Shown: in pieces, positions 50 through 5,299 of the stretch | Layout: each line of letters starts with the position of its first letter | Numbering within the stretch: position 1 is the stretch's first letter | Virus record (IMG/VR): IMGVR_UViG_2526164609_000012 | From: a virus | Taxonomy: Duplodnaviria; Heunggongvirae; Uroviricota; Caudoviricetes | DNA length: 16,518 nt | Reading direction: 5' to 3' (one strand) | Program-made: the position numbers and the translations under genes | The notes under the pieces: generated by a model | Told to the model about the DNA's origin: nothing | Database searches by the model: none | The model's input: the letters and a program-made list of their open reading frames with translations, nothing else

Positions 50-583
50 ATGAACGCAAAAATCAGATACGGCCTGTCGGCTGCCGTTCTGGCGCTGATT
101 GCCGCTGGTGCGCCTGCGCCTGACATTCTCGACCAGTTTCTGGATGAAAAGGAAGGTAACCACACCACGGCATACCGTGATGGCGCGGGTATCTGGACCA
201 TCTGCCGCGGTGCCATCCTGGTGGATGGCAAACCTGTCGTTCCGGGCATGAAGTTGTCGAAGGAAAAATGCGACCAGGTTAACGCCATTGAACGTGATAA
301 GGCGCTGGCATGGGTGGAGAAAAACATCAAAGTGCCGCTGACCGAACCCCAGAAATCGGGGATCGCGTCATTCTGTCCGTACAACATTGGCCCCGGTAAG
401 TGTTTCAGCTCAACGTTTTACCGGAAACTGAACGCCGGAGACCGGAAAGGTGCATGTGCTGAAATTCGTCGCTGGATATATGACGGCGGCAGGGACTGTC
501 GGAACCGCTCAAATAACTGTTACGGGCAGGTATCGCGGCGTGACCAGGAGAGCGCGCTGGCGTGCTGGGGTATCGACAGGTAG
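50..583 (+). CDS. phage endolysin, lysozyme family, with N-terminal signal-anchor-release (SAR)-like hydrophobic segment
   Basis: 177-aa ORF, ATG at 50. N-terminal hydrophobic stretch (GLSAAVLALIAAGAPAP) followed by EGNHTTAYRDGAGIWTICRG, which resembles the catalytic Glu/Asp/Thr block of P21/T4-type phage lysozymes. Lies directly upstream of Rz/Rz1. Confidence 0.85.
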   Translation: MNAKIRYGLSAAVLALIAAGAPAPDILDQFLDEKEGNHTTAYRDGAGIWTICRGAILVDGKPVVPGMKLSKEKCDQVNAIERDKALAWVEKNIKVPLTEPQKSGIASFCPYNIGPGKCFSSTFYRKLNAGDRKGACAEIRRWIYDGGRDCRNRSNNCYGQVSRRDQESALACWGIDR

Positions 584-918: not shown

Positions 919-1386
919 ATGAACCGTGTTCTGTGCGTGGTCATCATTGCCCTGCTGGTGGCCTGTGGTGCGCTTAGTCTGGGGCTGAATCATTACCGTG
1001 TTCACGCCATCATCTACAAAGAGCAGCGCGATAAAAAAGCCAGTGAGCTGGAGCTGGCGAACGCGACAATTACTGATATGCAGATACGCCAGCGTGATGT
1101 CGCTGCACTTGATGCCAGATACTCGAGGGAATTAGCCGATGCGAGAGCTGAAAATGAAACTCTGCGTGCTGATGTTGCCGCTGGTCGTAAGCGCCTGCGG
1201 ATCAACGCCACCTGCTCCGGTACCGTGCGTGAAGCCACCGGCACCTCCGGCGTGGATAATGCAACCGGCCCCCGACTGGCAGACACCGCTGAACGGGATT
1301 ATTTCATCCTCAGAGAACGGTTGATGACAATGCAGAAGCAGCTGGAAGGGGCACAGGACTATATCCGCACTCAGTGCCTGAACTAA
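919..1386 (+). CDS. Rz: Rz-like i-spanin (inner-membrane spanin subunit)
   Basis: Internal ATG at 919 of ORF 862-1386. N-terminal TM segment then coiled-coil sequence (HYRVHAIIYKEQRDKKASELELANATITDMQIRQRDVAALDARYSRELADA...ADTAERDYFILRERLMTMQKQLEG) closely resembling lambda Rz; contains an embedded +1-frame lipoprotein ORF. Confidence 0.85.
   Translation: MNRVLCVVIIALLVACGALSLGLNHYRVHAIIYKEQRDKKASELELANATITDMQIRQRDVAALDARYSRELADARAENETLRADVAAGRKRLRINATCSGTVREATGTSGVDNATGPRLADTAERDYFILRERLMTMQKQLEGAQDYIRTQCLN
1139..1324 (+). CDS. Rz1: Rz1-like o-spanin (outer-membrane lipoprotein) embedded in Rz
   Basis: 61-aa ORF wholly inside Rz in another frame: MRELKMKLCVLMLPLVVSACGSTPPAPVPCVKPPAPPAWIMQPAPDWQTPLNGIISSSENG. 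Lipobox-like VSAC and a proline-rich mature part as in lambda Rz1; AGGGA 8 nt upstream. Start could instead be the ATG at 1154. Confidence 0.8.
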   Translation: MRELKMKLCVLMLPLVVSACGSTPPAPVPCVKPPAPPAWIMQPAPDWQTPLNGIISSSENG

Positions 1387-1724
1387 GTTTTGCTGATGCG
1401 CCGTATCGTCGCTGTATTCCCTCATTAACAGAGACCGCAGCCCGACAGGGAGACTCCTCTGCGCGAGTGTGCGGGGATAATCAAAAACGATACACACCGG
1501 GGTTTACCGCGTTAACGGAGCGCGGCGTTGTCCCCTCATAGTCGCCAGTCCGGTGCGATGGTGGAAGAAACAGGACGATGTGTTACCTCGCAAGCCCTGT
1601 TATGTCATGTGTCTGATTTGTGATTTAAGTCGGATAATTGTCGTTGCCATTAAGCAGAGGATTGATGACCGACAGGGCGGCATTGTTAGAATAAGACTTA
1701 TTTTTATCTGTGCGGGGAATGAAA

Positions 1725-2051
1725 ATGAAAAGAAATCTTCCGTTAATTATTTTGTTGTCTTCTCTGGTTATGGGCTGTACGCAACATAAAACAGATATGC
1801 CCCGACAGTTGGTTAAGGCATTACCACAATATCCGGCCTATGCAGCGGCAAATTATATAAAGGGACGGGTTGATGTGAGGTTTGATATTGGTGCTGATGG
1901 TACTGTCACCCGAATTGAGTTTATTCGTTCAGAGCCGCACCATCTGTTTGATGAGCAGGTTGTAAAGGCGATGGCAAAATGGCGATTTGAGAAGGACAGG
2001 CCGTGTAAAGGCGTGAAGAAAACGTTTATCTTTAGTCCTTCCGCACCCTGA
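1725..2051 (+). CDS. moron lipoprotein with TonB C-terminal-domain-like fold
   Basis: ATG at 1725 with GGGGA 6 nt upstream (ORF track starts at GTG 1710). Signal peptide MKRNLPLIILLSSLVMGC with lipobox-like VMGC. C-terminal part (PAYAAANYIKGRVDVRFDIGADGTVTRIEFIRSEPHHLFDEQVVKAMAKWRFEKDRP) aligns by eye with the E. coli TonB C-terminal domain signature (G.V.V.FD...DG.V...P...F...V..AM..WR.E). AT-richer than flanking phage genes. Confidence 0.7.
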   Translation: MKRNLPLIILLSSLVMGCTQHKTDMPRQLVKALPQYPAYAAANYIKGRVDVRFDIGADGTVTRIEFIRSEPHHLFDEQVVKAMAKWRFEKDRPCKGVKKTFIFSPSAP

Positions 2052-2182
2052 TTATTTCATCAGAAATTAATTATCACTCTGTTGTTATTCTGTACATCCC
2101 GGCAGGGTAAGTCTTGTTCCGTCGGATATGAAGATGAAATATTGTTGGAGGACAGTGGGTACCTGCTCCTGTAACCGAACGT

Positions 2183-2383
2183 TCATTTCTCGTTATTTGT
2201 CATGCTGGCCGGGCGCAGATGCGTTGCATCTGTTGCCAGCCTTCTCCTGCAGGCTTCAATAACCCACGCTGAAAAGTTACCGGACCCTTTATGCTCAAGG
2301 GCGATGTTGATCTGTTCAATCATGTGATTGGGGAAACGGATATTGCGGGTTGTGGTTCTGCGGGTACGGTTTTTCGATGACAT
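2183..2383 (-). CDS. small putative ribbon-helix-helix DNA-binding protein
   Basis: Minus-strand ORF trimmed to internal ATG at 2383, which has AAAGGAAAT upstream: MSSKNRTRRTTTRNIRFPNHMIEQINIALEHKGSGNFSAWVIEACRRRLATD... Basic N-terminus, a short beta-like segment (RNIRFP) and two helices fit an RHH pattern. Divergent from the HNH gene. I think it resembles small enterobacterial prophage proteins but cannot confirm the family. Confidence 0.5.
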   Translation of the reverse strand: MSSKNRTRRTTTRNIRFPNHMIEQINIALEHKGSGNFSAWVIEACRRRLATDATHLRPASMTNNEK

Positions 2384-2424
2384 ATTTATTTCCTTTACTG
2401 ATTGCCATATGACGGGGATTTTAC

Positions 2425-2790
2425 ATGGCTGAGCTTCGTACACTCCAGAGCAGAATCAAAACACTGAATACCCGACGGGTGAATATTCTGAAGGGTGAAC
2501 AGCGTCGTGTCAGTGGCAGTGCACGTGTTTCCCTCAAGCGTCATATCTGGCTCAGGGACGCCGGGCAGTGCCGTCTCTGTGGTCGTGTGGTTGACCTCTG
2601 TGACAGTGAACTCGATCACCGAATTGCACTTCAGTTCGGTGGTGGTAATGAGGAGACGAATCTCTGGACGCTCTGTACCGAATGCCATCGACAAAAGTCT
2701 GCTCGTGAAGCGGCGAGTGATATGCCGGACCCGACGCTGCCGGAGGTGTCCGGAGGTAGTGGCAGAGAGGACGACATCATCGGACTGTAA
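2425..2790 (+). CDS. HNH endonuclease, packaging-associated
   Basis: 121-aa ORF with Cys pairs and HNH motif (CRLCGRVVDLCDSELDHRIALQFGG...NLWTLCTECHRQKS); GGGGA RBS. Sits immediately upstream of a cos-like repeat region and the terminase small subunit, the usual place for terminase-associated HNH proteins in HK97-like phages. Confidence 0.85.
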   Translation: MAELRTLQSRIKTLNTRRVNILKGEQRRVSGSARVSLKRHIWLRDAGQCRLCGRVVDLCDSELDHRIALQFGGGNEETNLWTLCTECHRQKSAREAASDMPDPTLPEVSGGSGREDDIIGL

Positions 2791-2879
2791 CCCGACCCCG
2801 GGGGGTATCATCCGGCGTAAAAAACGATCGCTTTGGACACCGCGCCCCCTCTCACGCAGAGAAAAAATTCCCGTTTCAG

Positions 2880-3006
2880 GCCAGTTAACATGTTAACTGG
2901 CTGTCCGGGCATTTTTGCGGTTTTTATCTTTATTATTCAGTTTGTTGTGCGAAAAAAAATGTTAACTGGCTTTTTCAGAAAATGTTAACCAGGCAGCAGT
3001 TAACAT
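2880..3006. repeat. cluster of GTTAAC-centred motifs including a perfect 22-bp palindrome; candidate cos / terminase recognition region
   Basis: Perfect palindrome GCCAGTTAACATGTTAACTGGC at 2880-2901; ATGTTAACTGGC again at 2959-2970; ATGTTAAC at 2982-2989 and its inverse GTTAACAT at 2999-3006, separated by CAGGCAGCA. An A/T tract (2911-2958) lies between. All within the non-coding gap between HNH and the terminase small subunit. Confidence 0.45.
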
Positions 3007-3080
3007 TTGCGGCATGAGACGCCGGGAAAAATGGGCTGAACCATACCCGGCTGAGTGCGTTCTGGACCCGGGAGGAGGCT

Positions 3081-3641
3081 GTGCTGACAACGCAAAAACG
3101 AAAATTTGCGCTGGCGCTCATGTCCGGGAAAAACAAAACAGCGTCAGCCATTGCCGCCGGTTATTCGGCGAAGACCGCCAGGGTTAAAGGCTCGCAGCTG
3201 GCAAAAGATCCGGAGGTGCTCGCGTTTATAGCCCGTAAACAGTGCGAAACGGTGGAGGTGGATGAGGTTCCTGTTTACCGGCAGAAAAAATCAGAGCAGG
3301 AGGATAAACCCCGTCGCCGTGAGGCGGCTGCAATACCACAGCCGGACGAAAACAATCCGGAGATGCCACCGCCCGCGGTGATGTCTCATGGTATTGAATA
3401 TATGGAGGATGGTCTTCCCGATCCGGTGAAAGCTATGGGGCAGATCCTGGTGGAAAACCTCAGCATTGATCCGAAACTGGCACTGGATGCGGCCTGGCGA
3501 CTGGCGCAGTTCACACACCATAAAAAAGGCGATGCCGGTAAAAAATCGGCAAAAGGTGATGCCGCGAAAAAAGCGGCTAACCGTTTTGCGGTACCACCAC
3601 CACGACTGGTGGTGAATAACGATAATGAGGGCAACGGATGA
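3081..3641 (+). CDS. terminase small subunit
   Basis: 186-aa ORF, GTG start at 3081 preceded by GGAGGAGG. N-terminal HTH-like segment (KRKFALALMSGKNKTASAIAAGYSAKTARVKGSQLAKDPEVLAFI) typical of small terminase subunits; stop overlaps the large-subunit start (ATGA at 3638-3641). Confidence 0.8.
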   Translation: MLTTQKRKFALALMSGKNKTASAIAAGYSAKTARVKGSQLAKDPEVLAFIARKQCETVEVDEVPVYRQKKSEQEDKPRRREAAAIPQPDENNPEMPPPAVMSHGIEYMEDGLPDPVKAMGQILVENLSIDPKLALDAAWRLAQFTHHKKGDAGKKSAKGDAAKKAANRFAVPPPRLVVNNDNEGNG

Positions 3642-5299
3642 TACCTGTATGGAGCACGGCCTGCCCGGACTGGGCAGAGCGCCTGAAAAAGGGGCTGTCG
3701 ATTATTCCGGCTCCGATTTATCCGGACCAGGCCGCACATGCCCTGGCGATTTTTAAACAACTGCGGATTGTGGATGCACCGGGTAGCCCGACGTTCGGGG
3801 AGTCCTGTGCACAGTGGGTGTTTGACCTGGTGGCGGCTCTGTTTGGCTCCTACGATGCGCAGACCGGTGTCCGCCATATCAAGGAAGTGTTCATTCTGAT
3901 ACCCAAAAAAAACAGCAAGTCCACACTGGCCGCCGGGATCATGATGACGGCGCTGTTACTGAACTGGCGGCAGGCGGCGGGTTACACGATTCTGGCCCCG
4001 ACTGTGGAGGTGGCAGCCAACGCCTTCAATCCTGCCAGGGATATGGTACGACGGGACGATGATCTGGATGACCTCTGTCAGGTGCAGACACATATCCGGA
4101 CCATCACCCACCGGGTGACGGACACCACCCTGAAGGTGGTGGCAGCCGATCCGAATACGGTGTCCGGTATCAAGTCCGTGGGGACGCTGATTGATGAGTT
4201 GTGGCTGTTTGGCAAGCAGTACAAGGCGGAGGACATGTTACGTGAAGCCATCGGCGGGCTTGCCTCCCGCCCGGAAGGGTTTGTGGTGTATACGACCACC
4301 CAGTCGAATGAACCGCCCGCCGGGGTGTTCAGACAAAAACTGCAGTACGCCCGGGATGTGCGCGACGGCAAAATTAATGATCCGCACTTTCTGCCGGTGA
4401 TATTTGAACACCCTCCTGAAATGGTGGAAAGCGGGGCTCACCTGCTGATGGAAAACCTCGCCATGGTCATTCCGAATCTCGGCTATTCAGTGGATGAGGC
4501 CTTTCTGTACCGGGAGTACCGTAAAGCCCGGGAAGCCGGTGAAGAGACATTCCGGGGGTTCATGTCAAAACACGCCAATGTGGAAATTGGTCTTGCCCTG
4601 CGCTCTGACCGCTGGGCGGGGGCTGATTTCTGGGAAGAGCAGGGCCGTTGTATCAACCTGGACGATATCCTGCGTCGTGTTGATGTGGTGACGGTGGGGA
4701 TTGACGGCGGAGGGCTGGATGATCTGCTGGGGATGTATGTGATTGGGCGTGACCGGGAGACCCGCGAATGGCTGGGCTGGGGCCATGCCTGGGCGCATGA
4801 AACCGCGGTGGTCCGACGGAAGAGCGAGGCGTCCCGGTTTCATGATCTTGTTGCCTGTGGAGATATGACCATTGTCCGGCGTGTCGGGGATGACACGGCG
4901 GAAGTGGCGGAATATGTGCGTCGCATTCATGAGGCTGAGTTACTGGACCATATCGGTATTGACCCGTCAGGGGTGGGGCAGATTCTGGATTCACTGGCGG
5001 AAGCCGGGATCCCCGACGGAATTGTGGTGGGGATAAGCCAGGGCTGGAAACTGGGCGGGGCCATTAAAACCACCGAGCGCAAACTGGCTGAAGGGGTGCT
5101 GGTGCATGGTGACCAGCCCCTGATGGCCTGGTGTGTCGGCAATGCCCGGGTGGAGCCTAAAGGTAACGCCATTCTTATCACCAAACAGGCCAGTAGACGG
5201 GGAAAAATTGACCCGCTGATGGCGCTGTTCAATGCGGTCTCCCTGATGTCCCTTAACCCGGAACCGAAAAAGAAAGAATATGCGGTTTTTTTCATATAA
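3638..5299 (+). CDS. terminase large subunit
   Basis: 553-aa ORF. ATPase P-loop-like segment (FILIPKKNSKSTLAAGIMMTALLL) and a C-terminal nuclease-like region (VTVGIDGGGLDDLLGMYVIGRD); size and position after the small subunit fit. Confidence 0.9.
   Translation: MIPVWSTACPDWAERLKKGLSIIPAPIYPDQAAHALAIFKQLRIVDAPGSPTFGESCAQWVFDLVAALFGSYDAQTGVRHIKEVFILIPKKNSKSTLAAGIMMTALLLNWRQAAGYTILAPTVEVAANAFNPARDMVRRDDDLDDLCQVQTHIRTITHRVTDTTLKVVAADPNTVSGIKSVGTLIDELWLFGKQYKAEDMLREAIGGLASRPEGFVVYTTTQSNEPPAGVFRQKLQYARDVRDGKINDPHFLPVIFEHPPEMVESGAHLLMENLAMVIPNLGYSVDEAFLYREYRKAREAGEETFRGFMSKHANVEIGLALRSDRWAGADFWEEQGRCINLDDILRRVDVVTVGIDGGGLDDLLGMYVIGRDRETREWLGWGHAWAHETAVVRRKSEASRFHDLVACGDMTIVRRVGDDTAEVAEYVRRIHEAELLDHIGIDPSGVGQILDSLAEAGIPDGIVVGISQGWKLGGAIKTTERKLAEGVLVHGDQPLMAWCVGNARVEPKGNAILITKQASRRGKIDPLMALFNAVSLMSLNPEPKKKEYAVFFI

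Follow-up and report, generated by a model that had tools for sequence, protein, structure and literature searches.

A prophage lipoprotein with a predicted TonB C-terminal domain, a possible decoy for TonB-dependent entry

The gene and its product

The window analysed here, i.e., the whole 16,518-nucleotide stretch of the IMG/VR record IMGVR_UViG_2526164609_000012, comprises the late region of a lambdoid prophage whose head genes are of the HK97 type. Between its lysis and packaging genes lies a short gene (1725-2051) which encodes a putative lipoprotein with a domain resembling TonB's C-terminal domain. The gene is not new as a sequence, as it is common and already annotated. Its product may be a decoy that lowers TonB-dependent entry into the cell. 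The features of the gene are the following.

1725-2051, plus strand: coding sequence of 108 amino acids, TonB_C-domain lipoprotein, corresponding to the RefSeq entry 'TonB family protein' WP_000828072.1
1725-1778, plus strand: lipoprotein signal peptide and lipobox, residues 1-18, read from the sequence
1800-2036, plus strand: TonB C-terminal domain, residues 26-104, equivalent to TonB 153-231 (Pfam, TIGRFAM, phmmer, Foldseek)
1665-1692, plus strand: promoter-like site with -35 ATGACC, a 16-bp spacer and a TG-extended -10 TAGAAT (TGtTAGAAT), found by a consensus scan
1689-1708, plus strand: AATAAGACTTATTTTTATC, an imperfect palindrome which resembles a degenerate Fur box (13/19 to the Fur consensus) and lies 35 bp before the ATG

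The open reading frame (ORF) is intact over its 108 codons. It starts with the ATG at 1725, and a GGGGA Shine-Dalgarno sequence is found at 1714-1718, 7 nt before this start codon. The signal peptide reads MKRNLPLIILLSSLVMG and is followed by cleavage before C18 (lipobox LVMG/C18, Cys18 codon at 1776-1778). A basic n-region consisting of K2 and R3 precedes an 11-residue hydrophobic core and the lipobox LVMGC. Both signal peptide and lipobox had been proposed in the first-pass annotation of the window; they can be read in the sequence and are conserved in the homologues. The lipobox pattern and the +2 (Lol) sorting rule are established knowledge. In the present protein, a charged n-region, a hydrophobic core, a lipobox of the form [LVI][ASTVIM][GAS]C and a +2 residue other than Asp are found together. 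The lipobox is kept in all homologues with an assignable start, down to about 34% identity, and is therefore not a chance match. Across the same family members the +2 residue is S, T, A or V and never Asp.

After the cleavage point, the protein starts with C18-TQHK, with Thr at position +2. Under the Lol sorting rule, this residue points to sorting to the outer membrane, and the product is predicted to be an outer-membrane lipoprotein facing the periplasm. The mature protein (Cys18-Pro108) comprises 91 amino acids, and the tether between Cys18 and the TonB domain has a length of only 7 residues. A second cysteine, Cys94 (codon 2004-2006), is replaced by Arg in the commonest variant of the subfamily to which the window allele belongs (subfamily A; variant P0001, 395 member sequences). 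Since this cysteine is not conserved, a structural disulfide through Cys94 is unlikely.

The TonB C-terminal domain

The first-pass annotation had aligned the protein by eye with the TonB C-terminal domain and had suggested a profile search and a comparison of predicted folds as checks. Both bear the alignment out. The Pfam model PF03544 (TonB_C) matches with E = 8.7e-15 and 55.4 bits, well over the cut-off of 24.6, and TIGR01352 matches with 55.2 bits against a cut-off of 27.1. A phmmer search of the PDB gave E values of about 1e-15 to the C-terminal domains of E. coli (Escherichia coli) and Salmonella TonB (1u07, 1xx3, 2gsk, 2grx, 8rd6). Residues 26-104 pair with E. coli TonB 153-231 without a single gap, and 30 of the 79 positions (38%) are identical. 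The best NCBIfam matches are the enterobacterial TonB equivalogs with E = 2e-20; the top score among these models (NF008080-NF008084) is 73.6 bits, far under the cut-off of 315.

As for the structure, the AlphaFold2 model has a mean predicted local distance difference test score (pLDDT) of 65.5, and its core (residues 45-104) reaches 67-86. The order of the secondary-structure elements is helix, strand, strand, helix, strand. The nine best Foldseek matches in the PDB all belong to C-terminal domains, either from TonB or from the TonB homologue FusB, each with a probability of 1.00 and with target-normalised template modelling (TM) scores of 0.56-0.65. Among the viral structures of BFVD, the model had no match at E <= 0.001.

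As judged from sequence and predicted fold, the mature part of the protein is a complete TonB C-terminal domain. It is equivalent to TonB 145-235, ends at TonB position 235 and misses the last four residues. In the co-crystal of FhuA and TonB, the ordered TonB segment consists of residues 158-235 (PMC2533080). The mature protein covers this whole FhuA-bound segment, and its size is close to that of the 92-residue fragment 1u07. The conserved set of TonB, which we take to be the YP motif, F180, F202, W213, Y215 and F230, has its counterparts here: the YP motif and five aromatics are retained as Y36-P37, F53, F75, W86, F88 and F103.

Two other positions differ. At the position of TonB R166, which reportedly touches the FhuA cork in 2GRX, this protein and most of the family have Tyr. 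At the position of TonB Q160, the protein has Leu; the relatives have Tyr, His or Leu. The exchange Q160L is a classic tonB suppressor by which function is regained when the TonB boxes of FhuA and colicin M are mutated (PMC11658791; PMC2533080). Moreover, the transmembrane anchor and the proline-rich rod of TonB are absent, and residues 1-18 form a cleavable lipoprotein signal. Because the anchor and the proline-rich spacer are missing, the protein cannot take energy from ExbB-ExbD.

The cassette and its neighbours

The gene lies in a discrete cassette between the lysis genes and the packaging genes. The arrangement of this part of the window is given below.

50-583, plus strand: endolysin (phrog_7, E = 2e-62)
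919-1386, plus strand: Rz i-spanin (phrog_13, 6e-73; phrog_3198, 2e-31, for the Rz/Rz1 pair)
1139-1324, plus strand: Rz1 o-spanin, embedded in Rz (same PHROG scan)
1578-2172, plus strand: moron cassette of about 595 bp, consisting of promoter-like site, ORF and 3' tail (comparison with vB_EcoS-569R3)
2183-2383, minus strand: YlcI/YnfO (DUF3950) gene, directly right of the cassette (Pfam DUF3950, RefSeq annotation)
2425-2790, plus strand: HNH endonuclease (annotation, PHROG scan)
3081-3641, plus strand: terminase small subunit (annotation, PHROG scan)
3638-5299, plus strand: terminase large subunit (annotation, PHROG scan)

In phage vB_EcoS-569R3, the equivalents of window positions 1396-1577 and 2173-3200 adjoin each other, and the 595-bp cassette is absent. 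The cassette junctions have only a short (A)AAC microhomology in common. The GC content of the cassette is 0.42-0.46 (0.42-0.45 over 1500-2100), compared with 0.52-0.59 in the flanks. These observations agree with the earlier description of the gene as a moron, AT-richer than its neighbours and placed between the lysis cassette and the packaging genes. The cassette has the structure of a moron, and on this comparative evidence the gene is classed as a prophage moron. The further statement that this is the slot of lambda bor needs to be narrowed. The region of the genome is the same, but phage 21 and Perceval carry bor alongside. Because both genes adjoin in these two prophages, the gene is a neighbour of bor and not its replacement.

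No intrinsic terminator was found around the gene by the terminator scan, and the Rfam scan of the window gave no match. A second ORF (1553-1789, plus strand, 78 amino acids) overlaps the start of the gene. It had no PHROG or PADLOC match and is probably spurious. Its counterpart in phage JLK-2012 is annotated as a hypothetical protein, and phage 21 has another small annotated ORF, CPT_21_72, just upstream of its allele.

Distribution and annotation

The prevalence of the gene was determined in 5426 complete E. coli genomes. Subfamily A, which includes the window allele, was found in 415 of them, and it also occurs in the phages Lys8385Vzw and JLK-2012 and in four Stx1a-converting phages. Subfamily B, with 71% protein identity to subfamily A, is present in 1225 of the 5426 genomes. 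Its members have been annotated under several names: 'TonB C-terminal domain protein' in the lambdoid phage 21 (CPT_21_73), 'TonB fragment' in Perceval, the prophage of the adherent-invasive E. coli (AIEC) strain LF82, and 'Partial tonB-like membrane protein encoded within prophage CP-933N' in ev017. Three PhiR phages carry subfamily B as well. A 418-bp contig of a Modestobacter excelsi assembly (NZ_SJEX01000172.1) encodes the first 67 residues of subfamily B. This fragment is identical to the allele of phage 21 and Perceval and is almost certainly E. coli prophage contamination.

According to the first-pass annotation, no example of such a protein had been described. This holds for the function. 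The gene itself is widely annotated, is present in phage 21 and is very common. In full-text searches of the literature, no study on the function of a TonB_C lipoprotein from a phage or prophage came up, and the sole relevant item is a transcriptome table of strain LF82. The PHROG scan of the protein gave phrog_1267, 34172, 812 and 5155 only, none of them annotated as exclusion proteins.

Relatives outside E. coli and their Fur boxes

An exhaustive HMMER search recovered short, full-length relatives of 107-133 amino acids with a lipobox and 41-51% identity (P0034-P0039; loci L008-L017, from Raoultella, Klebsiella, Erwinia and Sodalis). They score 90-99 bits, compared with about 60 bits for true TonB C-terminal domains. 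Common to them are the motifs PxYPxYAxAN and KWRFE..KP. Prophage copies are found in Klebsiella, Sodalis and IMG/VR viral contigs. They always follow holin, endolysin and Rz, and they lie upstream of the packaging genes wherever the contig reaches that far. The position directly after the lysis genes is common to prophages of E. coli, Klebsiella and Sodalis and to the IMG/VR contigs. Other copies are chromosomal. For instance, the Raoultella copy adjoins lacZ-lacI and a DUF1440 gene, and that of Erwinia typographi adjoins panE and genes for an ATP-binding cassette (ABC) permease.

A gene for a DUF1440 (YagU-like) membrane protein near the homologue is shared by the Raoultella chromosome and the Klebsiella phage ST13-OXA48phi12.4, with 60% identity (L007 1277-1903; L008 6738-7301; L010 6727-7290). 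Such sharing may indicate that a segment of the chromosome was taken up by the phage, or that the transfer went the other way.

Most clades outside E. coli have Fur-box matches of 14-17/19 at a fixed place, 28-37 bp before the ATG (loci L008-L013, L016, L017, L122, L135, L139 and L146). A match of at least 15/19 occurs in 0.2% of random 60-bp windows. Several relatives carry perfect TGATAATnATTATCA repeats, i.e., TGATAAT(N)ATTATCA inverted repeats. Strong boxes were seen in Raoultella, Klebsiella, Erwinia, Sodalis and many prophage copies. In most of the loci of about 12 kb, the box upstream of the homologue is essentially the sole match of at least 14/19; the Sodalis locus has several more. 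These strong Fur boxes in the relatives tie the family to iron and TonB physiology.

The window carries an element at the same position, which overlaps the -10 element. With 13/19 it carries no significance by itself: such a match has a background of 0.02 for random windows and of 0.15 for AT-rich ones, and that of the window falls within the background of AT-rich DNA. Most subfamily-A copies read GAATAAGaCTTATTC there, a perfect 7-1-7 palindrome which differs from the Fur repeat. In subfamily B the element is lost (9/19). From these patterns, the family appears to have been ancestrally Fur-regulated, and the E. coli prophage alleles appear to have drifted toward Fur-independent expression.

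Selection and expression

Between subfamilies A and B, the nonsynonymous divergence (dN) is 0.19 and the synonymous divergence (dS) is about 1.5, which gives a dN/dS of 0.11. By this measure, the gene is under purifying selection.

The promoter-like site upstream of the gene is not significant alone in the consensus scan. Its TGn+(T/C)AGAAT element is kept in the phage 21 allele, and extended -10-like elements are found at the same place in other clades. Transcription has been recorded for the Perceval allele LF82_160, which is 71% identical to the window protein. It is transcribed in the lysogen, 8-fold over the prophage background, while the neighbouring late genes are silent (PMC9928086). 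Its log2 expression was 5.0-6.6 in all conditions; the endolysin, Rz and terminase neighbours had values of 2.3-4.4 (PMC9928086 supplementary tables). In the reported differential comparison, LF82_160 showed a log2 fold change of 0.26, which was not significant, and host tonB rose by 1.36 (PMC9928086). The unchanged expression in LF82 fits the lack of a Fur element in subfamily B.

A possible TonB decoy and its alternatives

We tentatively favour the interpretation that the lipoprotein is a dominant-negative decoy which lowers TonB-dependent entry, and would stop short of calling it probable. The lipid-tethered, unenergised TonB tip would sit at the outer membrane on the periplasmic side. Its beta-3 strand would pair with the TonB boxes of FhuA, BtuB, FepA, Cir and other transporters, and the TonB boxes of incoming group B colicins would be captured likewise. 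No force would be transmitted to the captured TonB boxes. The first-pass annotation had suggested binding of TonB boxes and a block of TonB-dependent phages and colicins, and the interpretation given here widens this suggestion a little. As a result, the entry of T1, phi80, FhuA/TonB-dependent lambdoid phages, colicins and microcins would be lowered, at some cost to siderophore uptake. Within this interpretation, the outer-membrane location, the binding of TonB boxes and the exclusion phenotype are the parts that we infer. A more ambitious version, in which a natural decoy captures the TonB boxes of transporters, colicins, microcins and phage-triggered receptors, broadly excludes all TonB-dependent invaders from the lysogen and its expression was ancestrally tuned by Fur to receptor abundance, seems rather doubtful to us.

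The decoy interpretation is plausible because of the full TonB C-terminal domain with its coverage of the FhuA-bound segment, the conserved lipobox, the short tether and the laboratory precedent. Regarding the latter, an overproduced periplasmic TonB domain is reported to inhibit TonB-dependent iron import (Howard 2001, as cited in PMC9841981). Similarly, a TonB-box pentapeptide is reported to reduce phi80 infection and killing by colicins (Tuckman 1992, as cited in PMC9841981). Further backing comes from the discrete cassette, its constant place after the lysis genes in diverse prophages, the dN/dS of 0.11, the transcription in Perceval and the exchange equivalent to Q160L. The Fur boxes can also be counted in its favour, since they link the family to the conditions in which TonB-dependent receptors are most abundant.

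Several points weigh against the decoy. A blocker of TonB boxes would impair iron uptake just when Fur derepresses it. Raoultella, Klebsiella and Erwinia have stand-alone copies on the chromosome which are preceded by Fur boxes, and these point to a housekeeping function in iron physiology. Such genes fit a physiological role in iron/TonB biology no less well than a purely anti-phage one. The Fur-like element of the window itself is degenerate (13/19). Q160 and R166 of TonB are not conserved, and the binding specificity may therefore differ from that of TonB. The confidence of the AlphaFold model is only moderate (mean pLDDT 65.5), and the transcription of LF82_160 in the lysogen is only modest. 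Finally, PADLOC gave no defence-system model for the protein; its single match, with E = 0.038, is a chance one.

The points concerning Fur lead to a different explanation, in which the protein modulates TonB and iron uptake physiologically and does not serve in defence. As an outer-membrane lipoprotein induced by iron starvation, it would adjust, protect or organise the TonB-dependent transporters or the traffic of TonB, and prophages would carry its gene as an iron-related fitness moron. We regard this as unlikely, yet as an explanation to be taken seriously. It draws on the near-perfect Fur boxes, including those upstream of the stand-alone genes of Raoultella (lacZ-lacI) and Erwinia (panE). 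The E. coli prophage alleles speak against it, since their Fur box is degenerate (13/19) or lost (9/19) and that of Perceval showed no induction in the comparison where host tonB rose. Furthermore, we know of no mechanism by which an unenergised TonB domain would aid transport. The sole experimental precedent for free TonB C-terminal domains is inhibition (PMC9841981). Phage 21 (OL657228 21967-24502) and Perceval (PMC9928086) also carry the sitABCD Mn/Fe importer, in line with iron-related cargo, although this co-carriage may reflect a single prophage lineage. It is also conceivable that sitABCD, as a TonB-independent importer, compensates for a TonB block.

An envelope role unrelated to TonB is quite unlikely. 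Such a role could consist in binding of peptidoglycan or outer-membrane proteins, in a Bor-like interaction with serum or host, or in binding of a phage or colicin component other than a TonB box. TonB_C-like domains do serve elsewhere, e.g., in the gliding-motility proteins AgmX/GltG, which gave weak NCBIfam matches, and the fold is common to TolA domain III, which gave weaker Foldseek matches. The adjacency to bor in phage 21 and Perceval and the changes at Q160 and R166 would also suit such a role. The best matches are nevertheless by far those to enterobacterial TonB (NCBIfam, E = 2e-20; PDB), and the Fur boxes of the relatives indicate iron and TonB biology.

The same dominant-negative outcome could be reached through mixed dimers with TonB itself, which we consider distinctly improbable. 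In crystals, C-terminal fragments of TonB form dimers (the matches include 1u07 and 1ihr), and the aromatics linked to TonB-TonB contacts are conserved here. Work of the Postle laboratory reportedly shows that these aromatics are engaged in contacts between TonB molecules in vivo. Compared with its transporters, TonB is scarce, but the 7-residue tether would allow contact only once TonB reaches the outer membrane, which counts against mixed dimers, and PMC3005593 reports in its title that the crystal dimers are absent in vivo.

The label of phrog_1267, 'Rz-like spanin', which the protein matches over its full length (E = 1.7e-42), would make it a spanin or an accessory lysis protein. Its constant position directly after Rz/Rz1 and its outer-membrane-type lipoprotein nature, like that of Rz1, agree with the label. 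This reading is very improbable and was rejected, as a complete Rz/Rz1 pair is already present upstream and a sister phage whose lysis genes are intact lacks the cassette. In addition, the chromosomal relatives with Fur boxes are distant from all lysis genes, the mature part forms a globular TonB_C domain of 91 residues, and in lysogens, where the lysis genes are silent, the Perceval allele is transcribed. The family phrog_1267 is that of the TonB_C lipoproteins, and its label is most likely an annotation error, made from the lipoprotein signal and the position, given the prophage's own complete spanin pair and the dispensability of the cassette in the sister phage.

That the gene is a functionless remnant of a host tonB, once captured and now decaying, as the annotation names 'TonB fragment' and 'partial tonB-like' and several frameshifted or truncated database copies might imply, is hardly credible: it is ruled out by the dN/dS of 0.11 (dS of about 1.5) together with the acquired and conserved lipoprotein signal, the family spans several genera with alleles in 415 and 1225 of the 5426 genomes, and the capture was not recent, because identity to E. 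coli TonB is only 38%.

Comparison with known systems

The closest known counterpart of the decoy candidate is the C-terminal domain of E. coli and Salmonella TonB, with which it has in common the full-length domain, the YP motif, the five aromatics and the predicted order of strands and helices. In contrast to TonB, it has a lipoprotein signal in place of the anchor and the proline-rich spacer, and Q160 and R166 are replaced by Leu and Tyr, respectively. Engineered periplasmic TonB fragments (Howard, Herrmann, Stratilo, Braun 2001, J Bacteriol 183:5885, as described in PMC9841981) are likewise exported without the energy-coupling anchor. Compared to these, the present protein is natural, phage-borne, lipid-tethered and 38% identical to TonB, and inhibition by it is proposed by analogy.

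Exclusion lipoproteins such as Llp of T5 and Cor of phi80, N15 and HK022 are also small phage lipoproteins of the outer-membrane type (bioRxiv 10.64898/2026.03.26.714494; PMC11436027). They act on TonB-dependent transporters from the periplasmic side, as the present protein is proposed to do by analogy. The PHROG scan gave no sign of homology to Llp or Cor; no direct pairwise comparison was made. Llp and Cor put a single receptor, FhuA, out of action; a decoy for TonB boxes would hit the coupling step that all TonB-dependent receptors share. Unlike them, it should spare TonB-independent users of FhuA such as T5.

Lambda Bor is likewise a lipoprotein moron between lysis and packaging genes; it is expressed in the lysogen, as is the Perceval allele. 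Its fold is unrelated and bor is on the opposite strand; the two genes coexist in phage 21 and Perceval. Raoultella, Klebsiella, Erwinia and Sodalis have short TonB_C lipoproteins (108-133 amino acids) which are members of the window protein's own family. Several of them are encoded by stand-alone chromosomal genes, and most have a strong Fur box.

If the decoy interpretation is correct, the gene would stand for a new class of prophage exclusion or tolerance factor, aimed at the shared TonB coupling step and not at one receptor. Among the receptor-blocking exclusion lipoproteins represented by Llp and Cor, it would form a new variant. The expected signature would be resistance to T1, phi80 and group B colicins, and none to T5 or group A colicins. 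Such a factor would have a bearing on phage therapy, since many T1-like and lambdoid phages are TonB-dependent, and on the ecology of colicins and microcins in the iron-poor gut. Siderophore-conjugated 'Trojan horse' antibiotics, which enter via TonB-dependent transporters, could be affected as well. Moreover, the protein could be used as a naturally occurring tool to study the way in which TonB locates TonB boxes. The gene is very common in E. coli and is also carried by Stx1a phages and the AIEC strain LF82, so that even a weak phenotype would be spread widely. Should the role be physiological instead, the family would represent an unrecognised, probably Fur-regulated component of enterobacterial iron uptake.

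The remainder of the window

At its right end, the window contains an IS66-family insertion element at about 13732-16518, with tnpC at 14094-15695 (minus strand) and tnpB within 15702-16193 (minus strand). The element begins about 30 bp into the tail tape-measure gene (ATG at 13699), and the matches to related prophages end at 13731. Since the tape-measure gene is broken by this element, the prophage is probably defective. The window does not include the tail-tip protein J. In a closely related prophage of E. coli HCP4S3_I4, a full ompC is found among the tail genes (L002 29171-30304), between the equivalents of lambda M and L. It is another outer-membrane moron in the same type of prophage.

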